Origin: an uncultured cyanobacterium
Lineage (GTDB): Bacteria; Cyanobacteriota; Cyanobacteriia; Cyanobacteriales; CAWUOF01
NCBI GenBank assembly: GCA_963744145.1
Contig: CAVUSO010000001.1
Location: 2,062,831 to 2,126,830, forward strand
Length of the DNA stretch: 64,000 nucleotides
Reading direction: 5' to 3'
The notes beneath the pieces were generated by a model. That model was not told the DNA's origin and searched no databases. It saw nothing but the letters and a program-made list of their open reading frames with translations. Shown here in pieces: positions 1,257-51,295 of this stretch (position 1 is its first letter; each line of letters opens with the position of its first letter). The position numbers were made by a program, and so were the translations under genes.

Positions 1257-4200
1257 ATGAAACGACAAGCGTTAGTTATTGGGATCAACCGCTATCCATT
1301 TTTAAAGCAGCATCTCGACGGACCCGATCGAGATGCTAATGATATTGCCAACTTGCTGGATCGTCCCCAGGAACATCCCGATGATTTTACTTGGTGTGTG
1401 GAACGCTTGCTTTCTGCCAAAATAGAAACAGAAGATAGCACAGTTAAAACAGAAGAACTGCGCGAAGCTATCCAGAATTTATTTTTACCAACTACCAAAA
1501 CGCCCCCAGAAGTAGTGTTGTTGTTTTTTGCTGGTCACGGACTGCGGAATAAAGCAGGAGAAGTTTACCTAGCTGCTAGTGATGTCTGTCCCACCAGAAA
1601 AGATAAATGGGGTTTTCCGATTGAGGAATTGCGGGAATTAATGCAAAAAAGTAAAATTCCCCAGCAGATAGTATTTCTCGATTGCTGTCATAGCGGTGAC
1701 TTAGTGAATGGGTTGACAAATTTAACAGAGCCAGAACTGCAACAATGGAACATCGGTGGGAGTCGATTAATTGTCACTGCTTGTAGAGACGATCGCACGG
1801 CTAAAGGTATTGGTAAACGCGGTGTACTTACTGAGGCACTTTTACAAGGACTCGACCCCCAAAACCGAGAAACTGGCTACTGGGTCAGCACTTACTTCCT
1901 CTACGAATTTTTAATGCGGCACATCAATTATAATCCCCTGCTCAAGGAGCAAATTCCACTATGCTATCGGTATGGAGAACCGATTAATTTTTGGATGGGG
2001 AAAGGAGAAAGCGATCGCCTCCCGACTTCAACAATAGGATGGTGGAAATCTATTTGTGAGCAACGCTTAGAACAGCAGCACGCGATCAGCAGCAAATTTT
2101 TAACAGGAATTGCCCCCAAAATTGAAGATGTTTATGTACCGCTTGGTTTGGTGGAACGCCAACAGAAAAGTCGCCAAAAAGACGGCGGTGAAATAGATGC
2201 AACGCGGGGTTCTGCTTTGTATGAAGAAACCGAAATTACCCGCCGATTCCAGCACCATGAATTTTTAGAAAATGTATTGCGACGCGGTGATAGTCCGAAA
2301 AGTAAAGGCAAACGATTAGTTATATTAGGAGAACCAGGAGCCGGAAAAACTACCTTACTTCAACAAGCATCTCGCTGGGTAGCAGCAGAAATTGAGGATG
2401 CAATTGTTTTGTGGGTTTCCCTAGCAGATTTGGGAGGAAGAAGTTTAGAGGATTATTTATTAGAAGTGTGGCTACTTGAAATAGTACGAATGGCTCTGGA
2501 AGTTAGCGTTTCTGAAACTGATAAAAAGGATTTTATTGTGCAGGTTGATCAGGGACGAGTGTGGCTGTTCCTTGACGGTGCAGATGAAATGGCAGCTAGC
2601 AAACCATTATTAAAAATTGATAAACAAATTCGCAATCCAGGTTGGTTAAATAAAGCACGAATTTTACTCACCTGTCGGCTCAATTTGTGGGATAGTGGCA
2701 GTAACCCTCTCGCTGAATTTGATGTTTACCGGACATTAGAGTTTGACTATCCGGTACAGGTAGAGCAGTTTATTAATAGTTGGTTTACTGATTTGGGTAA
2801 AACGGATGAGAAAGCAATTGCTAGAGGGCAGCAACTCTGTACTGCATTAAAAGAATCAGGAAAAGAGCGAATTCAAGATTTAGTTAAAAATCCTTTGCGG
2901 TTGACACTTTTATGCTTTACTTGGCATAAGTGGCAAGGTAAATTACCGGATACAAAAGCCGGACTTTATGAAAATTTTATCGAGCGATTTTATGAATGGA
3001 TAGAAAATAAGTTTCCGGTAACTGTTGAGAAGCAAGAACAGTTAAATAAGGCGCTGGGTGAGTTGGCGCGGGAGGCAATTGATAAAGAATTAACTCGGTT
3101 TCGCTTGCGGCGCAAGTTTGTTAGCAAGTTTTTGGGAAGTCCAAAGGATAAGAAGTCCCTCTTTTATCTGGCGTTACAGGTGGGTTGGTTGAATCAGGTA
3201 GGAGTAGATGCAGATAACCCAGATGAGCCAGTTTATGCGTTTTATCATGCCTCATTTCAGGAGTATTTTGCAGCATTAGCAGTTGAAGATTGGCAGTATT
3301 TTTTACATCACATACCGCAAAATCCGCAGTTAGGAACCTATCGAATTTTTGAGAAGCAGTGGAAACAGGTAATTTTGCTGTGGCTGGGACGTGAAAATAT
3401 ACCAAAAGACCAAAAAGAAGAGTTTATTAATGGGTTGGTAGAGTTTCATGATGGATGCAGAGGTTTTTATAAGTATCAAGCCTATTTTCTAGCGGCTGCG
3501 GGAATTGCTGAGTTCAAAACTTGTAACCGATCGCAGGAGATAGTAGCAGAGATTGTTAAGTGGGGTTTTGGTTATTTCGATAATGAAAAACAGTCATGGA
3601 TGACTTTTTATGAACCTATACCGGAAACCGCTAGGAAAGCATTAAAAGAAACCGATTCTCAAAAGGCGATCATTCTTATAACGCAGCTAATTAATACGGA
3701 TTGTTCTGAAAGTATCCGCTGGCAAGCGGCAGAAAGTTTAGGGGAAATCGACCCAGGGAATCCCCAGGCGATCGCGGTTTTCATCGACTTAATCGCTCAC
3801 TCCCATGATGAATTTACCCGTTGGAAAGCAGCAGAAGAGTTAGGGAAAATTGACCCAGGGAATCCTCAGGCGATCGCGGTTTTCATCGACTCAATCGCTC
3901 ACTCCCGTGTATATCCCCCCAGCGCAGCGGCAAAAAGGTTAGGGAAAATTGACCCAGGGAATCCCCAGGCAATCGCGGCTTTAATCGACTTAATCGCTCA
4001 CTCCCACTCCCATGATGAATATACCCGCACATCCGCAGCAAATAGTTTAGGGTACATTGCCCCAGGGAATCCCCAGGCGATCGCGGCTTTAATCGACTTA
4101 ATCACTCACTCCCATGATGAATATACCCGCAGATCCGCAGCAGATAGTTTAGGGAAAATTGACCCAGGGAATCCCCAGGCAATCACGGCTTTAATTGACT

Positions 4201-5267
4201 TAATCACTCACTCCCAAGATGAATCTATCCGCATAGAAGCAGCAGATAGTTTAGGGAAAATTGACCCAGGGAATCCCCAGACGATCGCGGCTTTAATTGA
4301 CTTAATCACTCACTCCCATGATGAAGATACCCGCAATCAAGCGGCATATAATTTAGGGAAAATTTGGTACATTGCCCCAGGGCATTCCCAGGCGATCGCG
4401 GCTTTAATCGACTTAATCGCTCACTCCCATGATGAAGATATCAGCAGGCAAGCGGCAGAAAGTTTAGGGTACATTGACCCAGGGAATCCCCAGGCGATCA
4501 CGACTTTGACTGACTTAATCGCTCGCTCCCAAGATGAATCTATCCGCATAGAAGCAGCAGATAGTTTAGGGTACATTGACCCATGGAATCCCCAGGTGAT
4601 CGCGGCTTTAATCGACTTAATCACTCACTCTCAGGATGAAAATATCCGCAGGCGAGCGGCATATAATTTAGGGAAAATAGGAAAAATTGCCCCAGGGCAT
4701 TCCCAGACGATCGCTATTTTAATTGACTTAATCGCTTACTCCCAGCATCACCACACCCGCTATCGAGCGGCAGAAAGTTTAGAGAAAATCCTGCTAGACG
4801 ATTTTATATCAGAAGGTGTTACTCTTTTGGGAGTAAGGCAAAATCAAGAAGGCTTCAAAGTTCTATGGCAATGTGCCCAAAAGATGTCCTATCCAGCTTT
4901 CTATGAAGCTTATACAGTTTCCACTCTTGAGTATTGTCAGAAGTGGCTGGAGATTAAACGAACCATCGGTGATAAGCGAGGTGAGGCAGATTATCTGATC
5001 GCAATAGGTACTTTATATCAACAAAGTCGGAAATTTCGGGAAGGACAGGCATTTCTTCAACAAGCTATATATATTTTACAGGAAATTAATGCACCTATTG
5101 ATGCTTATCCCTTTGCCCAGTGGTTAAAATCAATTATTAAATTTGCTAATGGGGGCAAGTTGCAGTTAGCTCTATGCTTTATTGCTGGTTTAATAGCATT
5201 TCCGATAGCATTTCCTTTGGCTTTGATGTGGTTTTTAGCAGTGTGGTTGTGGCGTAAATGGCATTAG
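1257..5267 (+). CDS. STAND (signalling NTPase) protein: N-terminal caspase-like peptidase C14 domain - NACHT NTPase - about 9 PBS-lyase-type HEAT repeats - C-terminal hydrophobic segment
   Basis: A caspase-type His/Cys dyad is present (FFAGHGL … FLDCCHSGD). Walker A is VILGEPGAGKTTLLQ, Walker B is WLFLDGADEM, and LLTCR matches the NACHT sensor motif. Ten copies of a ~40-aa unit (…IRxxAAxSLGKIDPGNPQAIAALIDLIxHSxDE…) are encoded by ~120-nt nucleotide repeats at 3700-4790. The final 50 aa are hydrophobic. Confidence 0.8.
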   Translation: MKRQALVIGINRYPFLKQHLDGPDRDANDIANLLDRPQEHPDDFTWCVERLLSAKIETEDSTVKTEELREAIQNLFLPTTKTPPEVVLLFFAGHGLRNKAGEVYLAASDVCPTRKDKWGFPIEELRELMQKSKIPQQIVFLDCCHSGDLVNGLTNLTEPELQQWNIGGSRLIVTACRDDRTAKGIGKRGVLTEALLQGLDPQNRETGYWVSTYFLYEFLMRHINYNPLLKEQIPLCYRYGEPINFWMGKGESDRLPTSTIGWWKSICEQRLEQQHAISSKFLTGIAPKIEDVYVPLGLVERQQKSRQKDGGEIDATRGSALYEETEITRRFQHHEFLENVLRRGDSPKSKGKRLVILGEPGAGKTTLLQQASRWVAAEIEDAIVLWVSLADLGGRSLEDYLLEVWLLEIVRMALEVSVSETDKKDFIVQVDQGRVWLFLDGADEMAASKPLLKIDKQIRNPGWLNKARILLTCRLNLWDSGSNPLAEFDVYRTLEFDYPVQVEQFINSWFTDLGKTDEKAIARGQQLCTALKESGKERIQDLVKNPLRLTLLCFTWHKWQGKLPDTKAGLYENFIERFYEWIENKFPVTVEKQEQLNKALGELAREAIDKELTRFRLRRKFVSKFLGSPKDKKSLFYLALQVGWLNQVGVDADNPDEPVYAFYHASFQEYFAALAVEDWQYFLHHIPQNPQLGTYRIFEKQWKQVILLWLGRENIPKDQKEEFINGLVEFHDGCRGFYKYQAYFLAAAGIAEFKTCNRSQEIVAEIVKWGFGYFDNEKQSWMTFYEPIPETARKALKETDSQKAIILITQLINTDCSESIRWQAAESLGEIDPGNPQAIAVFIDLIAHSHDEFTRWKAAEELGKIDPGNPQAIAVFIDSIAHSRVYPPSAAAKRLGKIDPGNPQAIAALIDLIAHSHSHDEYTRTSAANSLGYIAPGNPQAIAALIDLITHSHDEYTRRSAADSLGKIDPGNPQAITALIDLITHSQDESIRIEAADSLGKIDPGNPQTIAALIDLITHSHDEDTRNQAAYNLGKIWYIAPGHSQAIAALIDLIAHSHDEDISRQAAESLGYIDPGNPQAITTLTDLIARSQDESIRIEAADSLGYIDPWNPQVIAALIDLITHSQDENIRRRAAYNLGKIGKIAPGHSQTIAILIDLIAYSQHHHTRYRAAESLEKILLDDFISEGVTLLGVRQNQEGFKVLWQCAQKMSYPAFYEAYTVSTLEYCQKWLEIKRTIGDKRGEADYLIAIGTLYQQSRKFREGQAFLQQAIYILQEINAPIDAYPFAQWLKSIIKFANGGKLQLALCFIAGLIAFPIAFPLALMWFLAVWLWRKWH

Positions 5268-5412
5268 TATCTCAGCAGAAGAAGGGTGAAGCATTCGGAT
5301 ATAATATTACTGCCCTTCGACTACGCTCAGGGTAAAGTTTAAGCGTTCAATTTTCGCCCGAATGCTTCACCCCTACACTTAACTGAACCGTATTGCATTA
5401 AATCAAACAAAA

Positions 5413-5697: not shown

Positions 5698-6083
5698 AGA
5701 TATCGGGGCTTTTTATTATGGGTTTAACCCTCATTGGGTGGGCAACAGTTGTCGGCTTAATCTCAATACAGTTCAGTTAATTGTAGGGGCGAAGCATTCG
5801 GGCGATAATTTATCACTTAAACCAGTTAATTTTATATCCGAATGCTTCGCCCTTCTTCTGTGCCGAGATCTCCAAAAACATTCTTAACTGAACCGTATTG
5901 TGCTTAATCTTGAATCGCGAAAGAGTTATTAATATAAGATATGCTGATCAAACCATAGGAAGACACCCGCCAGATGGCGATCGCATTCAGCCAGAAACTT
6001 AAACCGATTTCATGCTAAACTCATAGATGCAGTCTTACATTCTGGTTTCAAAAAATTAAAGATAATCAATAAGGACTAGAGCT

Positions 6084-18210: not shown

Positions 18211-18365
18211 CAGTTACCTGTAGGGGCGAAGCATTCGGGCGACAATTTATTGCTTAAAGGGAGTTAATATTAAATCCGAATGCTTCGCCCTTCGACTCCG
18301 CTCAGGGTAAACCCTTCTTCGTCGATATCTCCCAAAACATCTATTAACTGTACCGTATTGATTTA
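18211..18365. repeat. Hairpin-bearing dispersed repeat (GGGGCGAAGCATTCGGGCG…CCGAATGCTTCGCCC + CCTTCGACTCCGCTCAGGGTAAAC + TTAACTGTACCGTATTG)
   Basis: The same composite element occurs at 5283-5400, 5771-5900, 47393-47510 and 50590-50725. Confidence 0.7.
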
Positions 18366-20139: not shown

Positions 20140-20287
20140 GCGAATTTATCTTGATCCCAACATTCTCGCTTATGTTGCCAATACTAAAGCCCCTCAACAG
20201 GCTGCATTTGAGTTTGCCCGCTCGCGAAGTCGAAGTTTACCCGTTCGCGGAGTCGAAGGGGTAGTCGATGTAACTTTTTTGGTTTAA
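20081..20287 (+). pseudogene. PIN-domain (VapC-like) toxin remnant truncated by repeat insertion
   Basis: MAKEPKRIYLDPNILAYVAN is a typical PIN N-terminus (xIYLDTNILIY). After ~40 aa the ORF ends in low-complexity residues and runs into the repeat cluster starting at ~20290. Confidence 0.45.
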
Positions 20288-20289
20288 TT

Positions 20290-20500
20290 GAATTGGATTT
20301 TAATATATATAGTTGATCTGTTTGTTGCATAAATGGTAAGGGCAAAGCATTTCGGTAATATTATTCTTCCCTTCGACTACGCCCCCTTCGACTACGCTCA
20401 GGGTAAACTTCGACTCCGCCCTTCGACTACGCCCTTCGACTACGCTCAGGGTAAACTCAGGGTAAACTCAGGGTAAACTCAGGGTAAACGTTTAAGTAAT
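20290..20500. repeat. Composite short-dispersed-repeat cluster (GGGCAAAGCATTTCGG hairpin arms; CCTTCGACTACGC(T/C)C units; 4 x CAGGGTAAACT 11-mers)
   Basis: It has the same architecture as the 183-bp unit of the 50726-51262 tandem array, with the internal 11-mer expanded to 4 tandem copies. Confidence 0.75.
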
Positions 20501-20583
20501 GATTGATTTGCCGAAATGCGAAAGCCCCTACCCGGATTGACCGATATCTGGCGATCGCAATTGTCTCTCCTATAATTCAGTTT

Positions 20584-34090: not shown

Positions 34091-36721
34091 ATGGAAAAAT
34101 CCTATCAATATCAAGTTGGTGGAAGTTTACCGGAAAATGCACCGACTTATGTAGTAAGACAAGCTGACTTTGAGTTATTCGAGTACCTGAAAGCAGGAGA
34201 GTTTTGCTATGTCCTAAATTCCCGACAAATGGGAAAATCTAGTTTGCTAGTTCGCACTATGCAAAGGTTAATTGCTGCGGGAATTTCCTGTGCTAGTATC
34301 GATATTTCGGATCTCGGTAGTAAACAAATTTCTTTAGACCAATGGTATGGTGGTGTTGCTTATAAACTGGTGAGTAGTTTTAATATCTGTGATACTGTTG
34401 AGTTTATGAATTGGTGGCGATCGCGAGAATTAATTTCTCCGGTGCAGCGTTTAAGTGATTTAATCGAAAATTTGCTTCTCACCAGACTTGCAGGAAAATT
34501 GGTAATTTTTATTGATGAAATTGATAGTGTTTTAAGTTTTAATTATTGTCTGGATGATTTTTTTGCTTTAATTCGTGCTTGCTATAATAAACGCGCTCAA
34601 AATTTAGAATATAATCGATTAACTTTTGCCCTTCTCGGAGTTGCTACACCATCAGATTTAATCGCTGATCATACCAGAACACCGTTTAATATTGGTAGAG
34701 CGATTTCTCTGAATGGTTTTAGTTTAGCAGAAGCTCAACCCTTAGCTCATGGATTAGCAGCAAAAGTAGAAAATTCTCAACAAGTTCTCGCAGATATTTT
34801 AATTTGGACAGGAGGACAGCCATTTTTAACCCAAAAACTATGTCAAATTATTCTCCATACTTCGATTTCTGATCAGCAAGATTGGTTAGAGCATTTAGTC
34901 CGATCGCATATTATTGAAAATTGGGAATATCAAGATGAACCAGTCCACATTAAAACCGTGCGTGATCGTCTCCTCAGAAATCAACAAAGGGCAAGTAAAT
35001 TACTGGGAATCTATCAAAAAATCTTACAAGATAGTAAAATAATTGCTGACGATAGCCCCGAACAAATCGAATTACAGCTATCAGGTTTAGTCGTTAAATG
35101 TCAAGGTTATTTACGGGTTAATAACCTGATATATGCGTCTATTTTTAATCAAAATTGGGTGGAAAAATCTCTGTTTGATCTGCGCCCTTATGCTGAAGTA
35201 TTAGCAGCTTGGTTAGCTTCCCAATGTCAGGATGAATCGCGATTATTACGTGGAAAAGCTTTGCAAGATGCCAGGGAATGGGCTAATCATAAAAGTTTGA
35301 GTACCCCAGATTATCAATTTTTAACTGCTAGTCAAGAATATGAATTAGCTGAATTCCGCAAAAAAGAACAACAAACCCAAATTGAAATTACTCGACTTTC
35401 CCAGGAAAAAGAATTATTAGAAAAATTAAACCAAGAACAAGAACAACGTAAATTAATAGAAAAACAACTCCGACAGGAACGGATGCTTAAAGCTGAAATA
35501 ATGGTGAGATTATCTGCTGCTTTAATCGCGATTATAGCTTTTCTGATCGGTACATTCTGGGTGAAATCATCCATTGATGATAACCGAGAAAAAATTATCT
35601 CTATCAGTTTATTTTCTGAAGCCCTATTTGAAGAAGGTAGACCCCTAGATGCCCTCAGAGAAAGTATTAAAGCTGGAATAGAATTAAAAAAATCCTTGGA
35701 TATAGATGCTGCTACTCAGATGCGGGCTTTAATGGCATTAAACCAAGCAGTTTATAGCTTTCAAGAACGAGAAAAATTGCTGGGATATACCAGTAAAGTT
35801 ACTTTTGTAAATTTCAGTCCTGATAGTCAGATCATTGCTACTGCGAATACAGATAAAACTATCAAACTTTGGCAAAAAAATGGTAAATTTCTCTCAGTTT
35901 TAGCAGGGCATGACGCTACTATTTACAGTTTGAGTTTTAGTCCAAATGGTCAGATGATCGCTTCCGCAAGTGCAGATAAAACCGTCAAACTTTGGCAGCA
36001 GAGTGGCAAATTGATTACCACTTTAAAAGGACATACTGCTGCTATTTATAGTGTTATTTTTAGCCCTAATGGTAAGTTAATTGCATCTGCTAGTGGTGAT
36101 GGAACTGTAAAAATTTGGCAACTTAATGGTAAGTTAGTTACTACTTTAAAAGATAATGATGCTCCAATTTATAGTATTAGTTTTAGTCCGGATGGTCAAA
36201 AAATTGCATCTGCTAGTGGTGATGGAACTGTAAAAATTTGGCAGTCTGATGGGAAGTTTCTTCAGATTTTAAATGAACATAATGCTGCGGTGTTAAGTGT
36301 TAGTTATAGTCCAGATGGAACTATGCTTGCTTCTGCTAGTGCTGATGGTACGGTCAGACTTTGGGAGTCAAATGGTAAACGCTTAAGTATTTTTCGACAT
36401 AAAAGTAGAGTAAATAGTATTAGTTTTAGTTCGGATAATCAGATCATTGCTTCTGCTAGTGCTGATAAAATGGTTAGATTGTGGCACCGCGATGGGACGC
36501 TAATCAAAACTTTAAAAGTTCATCAAGATCAGGTTTTAAGTGTAAATTTTAGTCTAGATGGTATGATGTTGGGTTCAGTAAGTTCTGATGGAAATGTCAT
36601 TCTTTGGAATTTACAACTTGAAGATTTGTTGAAAGCAGCTTGTCAAATTATAGGCGATCGCGATCATATTTCCCAGGTCGATCAAAATGACCTACATCTG
36701 TGCGACGGTGTTTTTAGATAG
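34091..36721 (+). CDS. AAA_35-type NTPase - coiled coil - TM helix - 8x WD40 repeat protein (876 aa)
   Basis: [22 protein letters not shown] is the same NTPase family as the TIR protein. [10 protein letters not shown] is Walker [19 protein letters not shown] coiled coil follows. The TM segment is [18 protein letters not shown]. Eight repeats of …ASASxDxTVKLW… (WD40) are present. Confidence 0.7.
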
Positions 36722-40348: not shown

Positions 40349-40562
40349 TCCCTAATTTTTACCTAAATCAGTGATTATGGTGAAAAATGTGTTAAGTTTA
40401 ATTAAGTAGCCATTCAGGATAATTAGGATGATTGAAAATAAACCCCCTCAATGGAATCTCTGTAGATTTGTAAAAACTCTTAGTTATTTTAGAGTGATCC
40501 CCTTTGTCGGTCAAATTGATTGGTTACAGCAACTTTTGGGGACAAAGACTAAACATAAAACT

Positions 40563-41993
40563 ATGTCAAACAATCAATCTAATGTGATTCTAGTAGCTGG
40601 TGCTACTGGTGGTGTTGGTAAAAGAGTAGTACAACGTTTAAGGGAACAGGGTTATCAAGTGCGATCGCTAGTCCGAAATGCTAACAAAGCTAAAGAAATT
40701 TTGGGGAATCAAGTCGAAATTGTCGAGGGAGATATTAGTATTCCAGAAACCTTAACTGCTGAAGTTACCAATAATCTCAAAGCGATCATTTGTTGTACAG
40801 GGACAAGAGTCCAACCTGTGGAAGGAGACACCCCAACTCGGGAAAAATATTATCAGGGTCTTAAATTCTATCTTCCCGAAGTTGTAGATGTACCGGAGAT
40901 GGTTGAATATAAAGGAATTCAAAACCTTTTACAAGCTACCCGTAACCAGCTAATTTCCAGTGGAATTGATCAGGAAAAAGTCGTCTTTGACTTCACCCAA
41001 CCTACTTCAGATTTATCAGCAGTTTGGGGTGCTTTAGATGATATCGTCATGGGGGGAGTGAGTGAAAGTGGAATTCGATTAGTTAACAACACCGCGATCT
41101 TTTCAGGTAATGTTTCCACAGCAAATTCCGGTGGATTTGCTTCAGTCCGAACTCGCAATTTTGAATCCCCACTAAATTTAGCCGAATACCAGGGAATCTA
41201 TATCCGGGTAAGAGGAGATGGAAAACGATATAAATTTATTCTTCGTAATGAAGACAAATGGGATAGTATTGCTTACACCTATTCCTTTGATACAGTTTAT
41301 AATATCTGGATTAATATTCCCATTCCTTTTCATGCCTTAATTCCATCATTTCGGGCTAAAACAGTAAAAAATGCCGATAAATTTGACCCTAGTAAAATCT
41401 ACTCATTGCAACTAATGTTGAGTAAATTTGAATATGATGGTGAATTAAACCCCAAATTTAAACCAGGGTTATTTCAGTTAGAAGTTGAAGCGATTAAAGC
41501 TTATGGGAGTAAAAAATTACCCTTCGACTCCCCTTCGACTACGCCCTTCGACTACGCTCAGGGTAAACTCAGGACAAGCGCTCAGGGTACACCCCAATTT
41601 ATTCACATTAGTTCTGCTGGAGTTACTCGTCCAGGAAGACCAGGAATCAATCTAGACCAAGAACCTCCTGCGGTGAGATTAAATGACCAGTTAGGAGGGA
41701 TTTTAACCTGGAAATTAAAAGGTGAAGAAGCAATTCGTAAAAGTGGAATTCCCTACACTATTATTAGACCTTGTGCTTTGACTGAAGAACCAGGAGGTCA
41801 AGCATTAACCTTCGCCCAAGGAGATAATATTAGGGGTAAAGTTAGCCGTAATGATATTGCTGATCTTTGTCTTTATATATTAAATGAACCGCAAGCAGTG
41901 AATGTTACTTTTGAGGTGAAAGAAAGTCAAAATGAAGGAGAAAATAGGAATTGGGAAACTCAGTTTGCTAGTTTGCAACCCGATTCTCCATAG
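40563..41993 (+). CDS. NAD(P)-binding (NmrA/SDR-like) protein with embedded CIA30 domain, carrying an in-frame short-dispersed-repeat insertion
   Basis: VILVAGATGGVGKRVV Rossmann motif. DDIVMGGVSESG…FSGNVSTANSGGFASVRT marks the CIA30 domain. The C-terminal half of the NAD-binding fold resumes after the insertion. Start taken at the MSNNQSNV ATG (40563). Confidence 0.65.
   Translation: MSNNQSNVILVAGATGGVGKRVVQRLREQGYQVRSLVRNANKAKEILGNQVEIVEGDISIPETLTAEVTNNLKAIICCTGTRVQPVEGDTPTREKYYQGLKFYLPEVVDVPEMVEYKGIQNLLQATRNQLISSGIDQEKVVFDFTQPTSDLSAVWGALDDIVMGGVSESGIRLVNNTAIFSGNVSTANSGGFASVRTRNFESPLNLAEYQGIYIRVRGDGKRYKFILRNEDKWDSIAYTYSFDTVYNIWINIPIPFHALIPSFRAKTVKNADKFDPSKIYSLQLMLSKFEYDGELNPKFKPGLFQLEVEAIKAYGSKKLPFDSPSTTPFDYAQGKLRTSAQGTPQFIHISSAGVTRPGRPGINLDQEPPAVRLNDQLGGILTWKLKGEEAIRKSGIPYTIIRPCALTEEPGGQALTFAQGDNIRGKVSRNDIADLCLYILNEPQAVNVTFEVKESQNEGENRNWETQFASLQPDSP
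41522..41594 (+). repeat. In-frame SDR insertion within a CDS, the same repeat as at 20370-20470 and in the 50726-51262 array
   Basis: The DNA cccttcgactccccttcgactacgcccttcgactacgctcagggtaaactcaggacaagcgctcagggtacac encodes …PFDSPSTTPFDYAQGKLRTSAQGT… in the middle of the protein. Confidence 0.7.
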
Positions 41994-47392: not shown

Positions 47393-47510
47393 TCTAATCT
47401 GAGCGATCGGGTAAACTCAGGGCAAGGCTCAGGGTAAAGTTTGATTGTTCAATTGTCGCTAAATATGCTTCATCCCTACACTTAACTGAACTGTATTGAG
47501 CGATCGTCAA
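47393..47510. repeat. Dispersed repeat copy (CTCAGGGTAAAC units + TTAACTGAACTGTATTG terminus)
   Basis: It shares the 3' module with the elements at 5283-5400 and 18211-18365. Confidence 0.55.
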
Positions 47511-48159: not shown

Positions 48160-48283
48160 AACCTCAATCCTCCTTAAATTCCTTATATATGCTAGTCTGT
48201 AAGGCCAGATGGGTTATGTCTCGACTACCCTTCGACTCCCCCTTCGACGATCCTCTGGGCAAGACTCTGATTTTGAGAAGATT

Positions 48284-50589: not shown

Positions 50590-50725
50590 TTAATCCAATC
50601 CGGTTCTAGGAGCAAAGCATTCGGGCGATAATTAATCGCTTAAATCCGTTAATATTATATCCGAATGCTGATGCCGTAGGCATCGCTACGCGAACGCCCT
50701 TCTTCTTCGATATCTCCTAAAAACG
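50590..50725. repeat. Hairpin repeat copy (AGCAAAGCATTCGGGCG…ATCCGAATGCT) preceding the tandem array
   Basis: Same family as the copies at 5771 and 18211. The 3' arm is degenerate. Confidence 0.55.
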
Positions 50726-51262
50726 CCTTAACTGAATGTATTTTAATATCTAGTTGATCTGTTGGCTGCATACATGGTGAGGGCAAAGCATTTCGGTAAT
50801 ATTATGCTTCCCTTCGACTACGCCCTTCGACTCCGCTCAGGGTAAACTCAGGGTAAACGTTTCAACCATCATTTATGCGCCGAAATGCTTTGCCCCTACG
50901 GTTAACGCCTTAACTGAATGTATTTTAATATCTAGTTGATCTGTTGGCTGCATACATGGTGAGGGCAAAGCATTTCGGTAATATTATGCTTCCCTTCGAC
51001 TACGCCCTTCGACTCCGCTCAGGGTAAACTCAGGGTAAACGTTTCAACCATCATTTATGCGCCGAAATGCTTTGCCCCTACGGTTAACGCCTTAACTGAA
51101 TGTATTTTAATATCTAGTTGATCTGTTGGCTGCATACATGGTGAGGGCAAAGCATTTCGGTAATATTATGCTTCCCTTCGACTACGCCCTTCGACTCCGC
51201 TCAGGGTAAACTCAGGGTAAACGTTTCAGCCATCATTTATGCGCCGAAATGCTTTGCCCCTA
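50726..51262. repeat. Tandem array: 3 copies of a 182-183-bp composite unit (long hairpin arms GGGCAAAGCATTTCGG / CCGAAATGCTTTGCCC flanking SDR units)
   Basis: Unit starts (cttaactgaatgtattttaatatctagttgatctg) are at 50726, 50909 and 51091. The copies are near-identical. The array has no unique spacers, so it is not a CRISPR. Confidence 0.85.
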
Positions 51263-51295
51263 CTTTCTATATCAGCTACCGCAGTAGGAGATATT

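Follow-up and report, generated by a model that had tools for sequence, protein, structure and literature searches.

A 72-nt in-frame insert that parses as three nested 24-nt repeat units in a cyanobacterial gene

Short bacterial repeats and the 24-nt unit

The small dispersed repeats SDR1-8 of Nostoc punctiforme and its relatives (Elhai et al. 2008, Genome Res 18:1484) reportedly measure 21-27 nt per unit, which makes them much smaller than MITEs, and are dispersed in filamentous cyanobacteria; they are said to sit inside other repeats and inside each other, with no linked transposase. To our knowledge, the colonisation of genes in frame by selfish repeats is textbook matter only for the ~150-bp elements of Rickettsia. 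These palindromic elements (RPE) span ~100-150 bp, are limited to Rickettsia (Ogata et al. 2000; PMC10969869, PMC3184786) and insert in frame in unrelated, often essential genes, where they add a fold-compatible extra peptide (PMC10969869, PMC3184786). REP/REPIN sequences are palindromes tagged with GTAG or CGTC and mobilised by RAYT transposases (PMC3733652, PMC3116915), while the cyanobacterial MITEs (Nezha, MaeMITE and the Anabaena MITEs with ORF fusions) measure 100-400 bp and have terminal inverted repeats and fixed target-site duplications (PMC3184786).

The unit described here has the consensus CCCTTCGACTMCG|CTCAGGGTAAA (two halves, 24 nt) and is nearest in kind to the cyanobacterial small dispersed repeats and to the in-frame elements of Rickettsia. 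It resembles the former in length (24 nt, within their range of 21-27 nt), with intergenic arrays in exact multiples of 24 nt, in dispersal, with eight loci and ~17 unit-equivalents in the whole 64-kb stretch of DNA analysed (hereafter the window), seven of the eight loci being intergenic, and in nesting, as units lie within one another and in the loops of hairpin elements; the likeness is one of features. Unlike those repeats, it extends well beyond the cyanobacteria and recurs in frame within conserved genes. SDR5, a 21-mer associated with HIP1, is a different repeat from the 24-nt unit.

With RPE, the unit shares in-frame positions in conserved genes at structurally permissive sites, but size and the missing palindrome set it apart, as it is 24 nt long, shows no significant fold, nests in itself and occurs in many phyla. 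Like REP/REPIN sequences it is short, abundant, mostly intergenic and at times intragenic, but it carries neither palindrome nor tag; the likeness to GTAG REPs belongs to the hairpin elements that host units (GTAG plus stem), which are separate from the unit itself. It is comparable to MITEs as a non-autonomous repeat able to fuse in frame with genes, whereas terminal inverted repeats are missing and junction repeats vary from 0 to 7 nt. Being exactly eight codons long, free of stops in 4/6 frames and devoid of a significant fold, the unit is not a MITE, REP or RPE. STRR heptamers were likewise rejected, as the sub-periods of the unit are 13 and 11 nt, and the HIP1 octamer GCGATCGC is absent from it.

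The host gene and its insert

The product of the host gene is an NAD(P)-binding Rossmann protein, an At5g02240-like atypical SDR protein whose fold is interrupted by a CIA30/NDUFAF1-like domain. By Pfam, CIA30 covers aa 187-353 and NAD_binding_10/NmrA covers aa 51-125 and aa 385-488, and Foldseek returned 1ybm/1xq6 and 7zkq_A as structural matches; the AlphaFold model is of no more than moderate quality (mean pLDDT 70, pTM 0.52). The closest orthologue in the comparison is 69% identical, and the 119 other best homologues, from many genera, range from 61 to 69% identity. The gene and the parts of its insert are as follows.

40428..41993 (+): host gene, 521 aa (ORF, Pfam and Foldseek)
41520..41591 (+): 72-nt in-frame insert, peptide PFDSPSTTPFDYAQGKLRTSAQGT (orthologue gap, codon comparison, pLDDT)
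41520..41530 (+): outer unit (split after nt 11), 5' part CCCTTCGACTC (read from the sequence)
41531..41543 (+): middle unit (split after nt 13), 5' half CCCTTCGACTACG (read from the sequence)
41544..41567 (+): inner unit, perfect 24-mer CCCTTCGACTACGCTCAGGGTAAA, PFDYAQGK (exact match)
41568..41578 (+): middle unit, 3' half CTCAGGACAAG, GACAAG variant (read from the sequence)
41579..41591 (+): outer unit, 3' part CGCTCAGGGTACA, 11+13 = 24 nt (read from the sequence)

The open reading frame translates through the insert as ...AYGSKKL-PFDSPSTTPFDYAQGKLRTSAQGT-PQFIHISS..., and tryptic peptides predicted from this translation are LPFDSPSTTPFDYAQGK or TSAQGTPQFIHISSAGVTRPGR. Alignment with orthologues, which a first-pass annotation had proposed for defining the boundaries, delimited exactly 24 aa or 72 nt (aa 365-388), with a gap in 19/19 aligned orthologues, and the edges were checked at the codon level by comparison with L112. 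At the empty site the closest orthologue reads aaa cta|cct caa ttt. Within the common CCC, the insert can be shifted by 0-3 nt, and the coordinates 41522-41594 given by that annotation are thus equivalent to ours. Its placement of the repeat in frame between the CIA30 domain and the C-terminal Rossmann half agrees with the Pfam borders and the unbroken frame. It had also named the same peptide at the same place in distant orthologues as the case against an insertion; neither the insert nor any related peptide occupies the site in any of the 119 other best homologues (0/119), and where the linker spacing is measurable it amounts to 34 residues in the host protein only and to 9-11 in the others. 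Judged from these alignments, the insert is lineage-specific and derived rather than ancestral.

The insert sits in a linker, predicted to be disordered, that joins the CIA30 domain and the second Rossmann half (pLDDT 26-48, coil between strands E347-359 and E390-394 in the AlphaFold model), and both the frame and the two flanking domains are unbroken around it. On these grounds, it is reasonable to infer that the protein bears the insert as a tolerated linker peptide.

The nesting into three units had escaped the first-pass annotation, as had the spread of the repeat beyond one genome. The 72 nt parse exactly as 11+13, 13+11 and 24 nt, and the encoded peptide can be written as PFDS[PSTT[PFDYAQGK]LRTS]AQGT. 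The inner unit is consensus-perfect, whereas in the outer and middle units the 3' halves deviate from the consensus, which fits either a greater age of these units or the en-bloc copy of a nested variant array; the GACAAG variant is known from other genomes too, as judged by sequence comparison. In sense orientation and codon phase 0, the unit encodes PFD[SY]AQGK, a hydrophilic, Pro- and Gly-rich peptide, and because it comprises exactly eight codons, any number of nested or tandem copies preserves the reading frame. A hairpin or palindromic nature was ruled out, as neither the unit (dG -1.1 kcal/mol, z = 0.06) nor the whole insert (z = 1.29) folds beyond shuffled controls, and the fold test detected no inverted repeat within the unit.

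Other copies in the window and the origin of the insert

A 30-mer taken from the insert has 6 matches in the window at <=3 mismatches, compared to 0 in 100 shuffles, and the repeat DNA quoted for this gene by the first-pass annotation is indeed present. The 24-mer itself, exact or with 1 mismatch, lies at 5313, 18288, 20384, 20432, 41544, 50823, 51005 and 51187, and the inner unit of the insert is identical over its 24 nt to the copies at 5313, 20384 and 20432. The following features were assigned outside the host gene.

5313..5336 (+): lone intergenic unit, located in the loop of a hairpin element with a 15-bp stem at 5275-5385 (match; fold z = -5.5)
5838..5862 (+): hairpin element copy X, matching site without a unit (empty), CCGAATGCTTCG|CCCTTCTTC (copy comparison)
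18288..18311 (+): hairpin element copy Y, filled site with one intergenic unit at the 3' foot (copy comparison)
20200..20262 (-): degenerate cluster of variant units (sequence comparison)
20369..20488 (+): intergenic array of exactly 120 nt, five nested units in a hairpin-element loop (parse)
47409..47438 (+): partial array of 3' halves only, in a hairpin-element remnant (sequence comparison)
48221..48263 (+): degenerate intergenic units (sequence comparison)
50722..51263 (+): 182-nt block, three times in tandem, each a 17-bp-stem hairpin element (fold z = -3.05)

The hairpin elements that host units in the window start with GTAG followed by the stem (GTAGGGGCGAAGCATTCGG). Each loop of the three 182-nt blocks holds two nested units (50810-50857, 50992-51039 and 51174-51221), and the half-site words of the arrays are balanced, with AABB for those of two units and AABAAABBBB for that of 20369..20488. 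The first-pass annotation had described the clusters at 20290-20500 and 50726-51262 as made up of this repeat; both contain it, but neither is built solely of it, since units account for 120 nt of the former and for 48 nt per 182-nt block of the latter, in either case in hairpin-element loops. Its main claim, that the repeat was inserted into coding sequence, gains support from the empty orthologue site, from the identity to intergenic copies, from a related unit that differs between Planktothrix strains and from the paralogous hairpin copies X and Y, which differ by exactly one 24-nt unit with CCCTTC as junction repeat.

Taken together, we consider it likely that a small dispersed repeat, 24 nt long and non-palindromic, gave rise to the 72 nt by lineage-specific insertion, with three units that were nested stepwise and are carried as a linker. 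A new unit would enter an existing one, usually between its two halves, so that the outer unit (split after nt 11) would come to enclose the middle unit (split after nt 13) and this in turn the intact inner unit; the units presumably arrived one after another and were probably copied in trans. The same copy-in process would build both the insert in the gene and the nested intergenic arrays. In the gene it would have hit the linker of ~6 residues that leads from the CIA30 domain back into the Rossmann fold, which would leave both domains intact, with the insert as a longer flexible linker that is probably translated and harmless.

The junctions have 3-6 nt in common with the unit (CCC in the gene, CCCTTC in copies X/Y), which is at least as compatible with a templated insertion guided by microhomology as with classical transposition, and the base 3' of the unit is C in 70/98 instances compared to 17/98 in the control. 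Apart from this C, neither a fixed target-site duplication nor a target motif was found, with junction repeats of 0-7 nt. No linked transposase or RAYT emerged either, as no protein family recurs within ~4-8 kb of the units at 108 loci; the all-vs-all comparison of 1,638 ORFs from these loci returned only aminoacyl-tRNA synthetase, GTPase and similar paralogue groups. Given that no trans-acting enzyme, fixed duplication or motif was found, we infer the term "mobile element" from the pattern.

The same insert could possibly stem from a single en-bloc event, in which the gene received a copy of a ready-nested three-unit array from another place in the genome, through illegitimate recombination, gene conversion or polymerase template switching via the CCC microhomology. 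The shared junction nucleotides and the frequent C after the unit are in line with such a copy, possible donor arrays with nested units are present within the window, and the variant 3' halves of the outer and middle units are also found elsewhere. However, no second identical 72-nt block exists within the 64-kb window, and a perfect inner unit within diverged outer ones is what stepwise nesting predicts. The number of events is the sole difference between this scenario and stepwise nesting.

We regard it as very unlikely that replication slippage expanded a motif already residing in the gene, with an incidental likeness to the dispersed repeat. TRF does report a 13-nt period with 3.1 copies at 41520-41557, and tandem AB-AB arrays occur in other genomes, but the orthologue site offers no seed motif beyond CC[CT], the inner 24 nt recur identically at three intergenic positions, the total is exactly 3 x 24 nt, and nesting, unlike slippage, explains the 11/13-nt asymmetry of the outer unit, with CG shifted to the far side. 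Slightly less credible still is that assembly or sequencing produced the insert as an artefact, or that the gene is a decaying pseudogene and the insert irrelevant to it. Repeats can mislead assemblers and only one genome carries the host protein (cluster of 1), whereas the source contig spans 7.63 Mb, the 521-aa frame is intact with all orthologue-invariant residues kept on both sides, and similar in-frame units recur in independent assemblies and isolates (e.g., P0168). An ancestral linker that the intergenic repeats merely happen to resemble can practically be dismissed: no supporting evidence was found, the homologues compared refute it through their empty sites and short spacing, and the chance expectation of the DNA match is 0 (100 shuffles). 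Stepwise nesting of a dispersed unit remains our preferred reading.

Occurrence of the unit in other genomes

The exact 22-mer core of the unit was found at >108 loci in about a dozen phyla, and in 0 of 5,426 E. coli genomes. Copies frequently read in frame as PFD[SY]AQGK in LepA, FtsH, ValRS, AtpD, RNase R and PolA, are also in frame in XerC/D, and lie inside RNase P RNA and beside tRNA genes as well. Within ORFs of >=300 aa, units show a frame bias of 17:3:5:1 (p = 3e-5). At the LepA site with an in-frame unit, 27/30 nearest homologues have no insertion, and the other three (3/30) carry unrelated insertions in the same loop.

Searches with Rfam gave no match at gathering thresholds on the window, and the matches on 21 loci were confined to tRNAs, RNase P and unrelated sRNAs, with no family spanning the unit; the peptide and DNA strings of the unit were not found in the full-text literature. 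Phages were discarded as a vector (3 matches among 2.9 million viral contigs and no credible one among 50,697 phage records). An origin from tRNA is unsupported: a T-loop-like TTCGA and a D-arm-like GCTCAG-GGTA are present in the unit, but in a spacing unlike that of tRNA.

A bolder reading, which we put forward only tentatively, is that the unit could be a pan-bacterial, ultra-small and previously uncharacterised insertion element, non-palindromic and exactly eight codons long, with a core (CTTCGACT...GCTCAGG) conserved nearly base for base from Patescibacteria to Cyanobacteria. Such an element would enter hairpin loops, structured-RNA genes and the loops or linkers of essential proteins, and would spread by a conserved host-level or horizontally shared mechanism other than a classical transposase. 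Under this pan-bacterial reading, the recurrent junctions of units with duplications of tRNA T-loops/3' ends and with tRNA 5' ends may be a pointer to how it spreads.

The module inserted here is a single 24-nt unit, frame-preserving by construction and able to nest in itself, so that protein linkers can grow in eight-residue steps. If the cross-phylum distribution holds, unrelated bacteria have had PFD[SY]AQGK written into LepA, FtsH, aminoacyl-tRNA synthetases, ATP synthase beta and RNase P RNA; the unit would then be a general but so far overlooked origin of indels in conserved proteins, and of spurious "hypothetical proteins" in metagenomes, and would point to an insertion mechanism acting far below the size of any known transposable element. 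In practical terms, the unit readily marks permissive loop sites in proteins.

In other genomes, the flanks of units are enriched for inverted and direct repeats, and Planktothrix strains differ by the presence or absence of 33 nt in frame that comprise a related unit.

The in-frame insert and its host protein

The DNA quoted in the first-pass annotation is indeed present in the window, and an ORF of 521 aa (40428..41993, +) reads through the repeat. In the encoded protein, Pfam places the CIA30 domain at aa 187-353, and the match to the NAD(P)-binding Rossmann family is split between aa 51-125 and aa 385-488, which indicates that the CIA30 domain is an insertion in the Rossmann fold. These Pfam limits bear out the position that the annotation had given the repeat, between the CIA30 domain and the C-terminal Rossmann half, and put it at the point where the chain re-enters that fold. 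An AlphaFold2 model based on a 20-sequence alignment (mean pLDDT 70, pTM 0.52) predicts that the insert (72 nt, 24 aa; 41520-41591) lies in coil linking the final CIA30 strand (E347-359) to a strand of the Rossmann fold (E390-394), with block pLDDT values of 33, 26 and 48 over the insert, 83 preceding it and 75 following it. Using Foldseek, the two Rossmann halves matched Arabidopsis At5g02240 (1ybm/1xq6, target TM ~0.8), and the middle domain matched NDUFAF1 (7zkq_A), an assembly factor of complex I. Orthologues have a linker of about six residues, and we infer that its lengthening may be harmless to the window protein.

A search of ~5.8 billion proteins with the window protein returned, apart from the protein itself, homologues that share no more than 69% identity with it; they occur in Microcoleus, Kamptonema, Ancylothrix and Coleofasciculus, among others. 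These are mostly 472-505 aa long (one has 526 aa), and the window protein, encoded on a contig of 7.63 Mb, forms a cluster of one. Alignment with 19 homologues revealed one clean 24-residue block, PFDSPSTTPFDYAQGKLRTSAQGT, opposite a gap and flanked by ...AYGxxxL and PQF[IV]x[IV]SSAGVTRP. A linker spacing of 34 occurs only in the window protein, compared to 9-11 residues in the other homologues where it is measurable. At the DNA level, aaa cta / cct caa ttt in the nearest orthologue corresponds to aaa tta / 72 nt / ccc caa ttt in the window. The same peptide at the same position in distant orthologues had been named as the sign of an ancestral sequence; among the 119 other homologues listed (≤69% identity), none carries a related peptide at this site. 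Judged from these alignments, the insert peptide is not ancestral, the closest homologue in the collections being only 69% identical.

Nested units and hairpin elements in the window

The insert consists of three 24-nt units, each nested in the next.

41520-41530 plus 41579-41591 (+): outer unit, CCCTTCGACTC^CGCTCAGGGTACA
41531-41543 plus 41568-41578 (+): middle unit, CCCTTCGACTACG^CTCAGGACAAG
41544-41567 (+): inner unit, intact, CCCTTCGACTACGCTCAGGGTAAA

The peptide mirrors this nesting, PFDS[PSTT[PFDYAQGK]LRTS]AQGT. The left part of the outer unit has 11 nt and the right part, bearing a displaced CG, has 13 nt. Slippage of 13-nt and 11-nt sub-repeats leaves this 11/13 split unexplained, whereas nesting explains it simply.

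A 30-mer from the insert showed six matches in the window at up to three mismatches, compared to none in 100 dinucleotide-preserving shuffles, and copies of the 24-mer CCCTTCGACTACGCTCAGGGTAAA with no more than one mismatch start at 5313, 18288, 20384, 20432, 41544, 50823, 51005 and 51187. Of the eight repeat-bearing loci in the window, the insert is the only one within an ORF of at least 90 aa. All unit-bearing loci, which are few as independent loci, are on the + strand except for a degenerate cluster at 20200-20262. The intergenic arrays follow the same nesting rule as the insert.

50810-50857 (+): array of 48 nt, C-variant unit within A-variant unit
20369-20488 (+): array of exactly 120 nt, half-site word AABAAABBBB, balanced

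Read by eye, the 120-nt array comprises five units, with three entry points behind nt 13 and one behind nt 2.

The window also contains a family of hairpin elements, including paralogous copies X and Y, which differ by exactly one unit.

5275-5385, 5786-5853, 18223-18291, 20337-20530, 50608-50690, 50722-51263: hairpin-element family
5775-5880: copy X, without the unit, CCGAATGCTTCG directly followed by CCCTTCTTC
18212-18340: copy Y, with the unit, GCTTCG followed by CCCTTCGACTCCGCTCAGGGTAAA and CCCTTCTTC

Unit and target have the 6-nt CCCTTC in common in this comparison, and the pair provides evidence that units apparently come and go within this genome. In a third paralogue, copy Z, another insert of 26 nt, GATGCCGTAGGCATCGCTACGCGAAC (50670-50695, internal palindrome), takes the place that the unit has in copy Y; with one copy in the window, it likely represents a second small-repeat family. 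The hairpin elements have stems of 15-17 bp (e.g., GTAGGGGCGAAGCATTCGG / CCGAATGCTTCGCCC) and a GTAG-like tag, and one of them recurs three times in tandem as a 182-nt block. Their folds reach z = -3.05 and -5.5 versus shuffled controls, and it is these elements, not the unit occupying their loops or 3' foot, that resemble REP/REPIN elements. Neither the unit (dG -1.1, z = 0.06) nor the 72-nt insert (z = 1.29) showed structure beyond shuffled controls; hence the unit does not qualify as a palindrome of the REP, MITE or RPE type. Two further tandem repeats lie within ORFs.

3716-4789 (ORF 1257-5267): 102-nt period, ~9-10 copies, each with the HIP1 octamer GCGATCGC
35910-36348 (ORF 34091-36721): 123-nt period, 3.6 copies, consensus WD40-like in appearance

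Distribution and in-frame copies in other genomes

Scanning one genome per species, at least 108 loci matched CTTCGACTMCGCTCAGGGTAAA exactly, against a chance expectation of ~0.1 match in 596 Gb by our arithmetic.

Loci per group among the at least 108 listed (approximate, assigned by reading record titles)
Bacteroidota: ~26
Patescibacteria/CPR: ~23
Chloroflexota: ~17
Gammaproteobacteria: ~8
Cyanobacteria: ~7
Planctomycetota: ~6
Acidobacteriota: ~5
Deltaproteobacteria-type: ~5

Further matches listed come from Omnitrophota, Nitrospirota, Gemmatimonadota, Zixibacteria and others, and the list includes isolates of Arenibacter, Chryseobacterium, Aequorivita, Nodularia and Scytonema. Flanks are unrelated from locus to locus, so that the common object is a unit of ~24 nt. 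In variant copies at the same loci, CTTCGACT and GCTCAGG are conserved, and differences fall at position 11 and at positions 20-24. Plasmid matches are nearly all cyanobacterial; 5,426 complete E. coli genomes contained no match, phage records no credible one, and 2.9 million viral contigs three. At seven loci from several phyla (L011, L023, L062, L071, L080, L096, L110), the unit is central in other widespread hairpin repeats of the GTCATCCYGAGC…GAAGGAT and GTCATTGCGAG…CGAAGCAATCTC types. These types contain the words CCTTCG and GCTCAGG on the opposite strand, a hint that they and the unit are related members of a larger superfamily of small repeats.

About one quarter of the exact matches listed fall in ORFs of at least 300 aa. 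Pfam confirmed FtsH, ValRS, ATP synthase beta, DNA polymerase I, a XerC/D-type recombinase and RNase R as carriers, and ORF translations added LepA, IleRS, a LeuRS-like protein, PurL and PurA. It came as a surprise that one 24-nt unit is so widely spread and present in essential genes. In the Pfam-checked proteins, the unit is mostly interdomain or at domain edges, for example between the AAA domain and the lid of FtsH or between the 5'-3' exonuclease and the following domain of PolA; in AtpD it lies within the N-terminal barrel. For a Saccharibacteria LepA, whose PFDSAQGK is also present in the independent NCBI assembly P0168, the 30 nearest homologues (68-80% identity) comprise 27 that lack an insertion at the site and three with unrelated ones in that loop. 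The unit is stop-free in four of six frames, and long ORFs use PFDxAQGK 17 times, PSTxLRV three times, FTLSxVEG five times and YPERSRR once (p = 3e-5 versus equal use), the favoured frame being hydrophilic.

In two plasmids of Planktothrix agardhii with 97% identity across the region, a small hypothetical gene (L115 384-700, L116 385-660) differs by a 33-nt in-frame insert, whose opening matches nt 1 to 18-20 of the unit, and additionally by one copy of an 18-nt tandem repeat. On the Trichlorobacter lovleyi plasmid pIAE1, which has three unit matches, an IS91-like transposase gene (L113 2917-4284) has a sul1/qacEdelta1 segment as its neighbour and contains the unit in the reverse frame (…PALSVVEG…) near the C-terminus. 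PurL (FGAM synthase) of a Flavobacteriaceae MAG (L029, OZ255723.1) contains, besides PFDSAQGK, a second, longer insert (…TLSLASPEQSRRVEGEMTCTELSRSK…SSRSFGTPRNDK…), which looks like a composite of unit variants in antisense and a further repeat family that is also widespread.

Flanks, candidate mechanism and RNA gene links

No protein family was found to recur in the 8-kb loci listed around units, which makes the units non-autonomous at best, and neither a terminal inverted repeat nor a fixed target-site duplication was found for them. Across 98 unique unit instances, a C directly follows the unit in 70 (control, 17/98) and junction repeats of at least 3 nt occur in eight (control, 1/98). Flanking inverted repeats of at least 6 bp (8/98; 1.4 expected) and direct repeats of at least 6 nt (7/98; 0.4 expected) are in excess, indicating that units tend toward hairpin loops and the interiors of other repeats. 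Three empty/filled comparisons gave junction repeats of 6 nt (CCCTTC), 3 nt (CCC) and ~5-6 nt. Templated copy-in, guided by microhomology and acting where loops expose single strands, would account for these junctions no less well than a transposase. As a candidate model, we consider it most likely that a 24-nt unit would be copied in trans and would preferentially enter loops, its own centre included.

The SDRs of Nostocales (Elhai 2008) are reportedly very small (21-27 nt) nested repeats, and the unit behaves like one; it is not SDR5, a 21-mer associated with HIP1. Membership among RPEs, MITEs or REPs was rejected, as the unit lacks the defining features of each. No account of this unit was found in the searchable full-text literature, and we regard the finding itself as solid. 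In-frame gene fusion is on record for RPEs, ERIC, BOX/RUP and Anabaena MITEs (RPEs: PMC10969869, PMC3184786; MITEs: PMC3184786), and the outcome of the window insertion looks like that of RPEs.

No tRNA gene was found in the window. Elsewhere, at six loci (five Bacteroidota, one gammaproteobacterial) involving five different tRNAs, an intact tRNA gene is followed, 50-110 nt downstream, by the unit in antisense orientation.

L030 1560-1778: tRNA-Asn
L073 1850-2193: tRNA-Thr
L006 180-389: tRNA-His
L036 5600-5820: tRNA-His
L020 6257-6487: tRNA-Asp
L002 6332-6560: tRNA-Lys

At these loci, the unit adjoins a directly repeated copy of the end of the same tRNA (last T-loop bases, 3' T-stem and acceptor strand) with GAGAAG and a short complementary strand ahead; in L073 the block is duplicated in tandem. 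In Arenibacter, the sequence past the repeat equals that past a second, uninterrupted tRNA-Asn copy, which implies that a ~100-nt block with a replacement tRNA 3' end is located there. Integrative elements likewise replace tRNA 3' ends, and the block resembles a miniature attL/attR-ended integrant. In two CPR genomes the unit contacts the first base of a tRNA gene, and in another it lies in the 5' region of an RNase P RNA gene.

L004: unit 39-60, tRNA-Leu 60-146
L059: unit 4428-4449, tRNA-Glu 4450-4521
L094: unit ~1250-1271, inside RNase P RNA gene 889-1292

The RNase P RNA match in L094 spans 404 nt, compared to 367 positions in the Rfam model.
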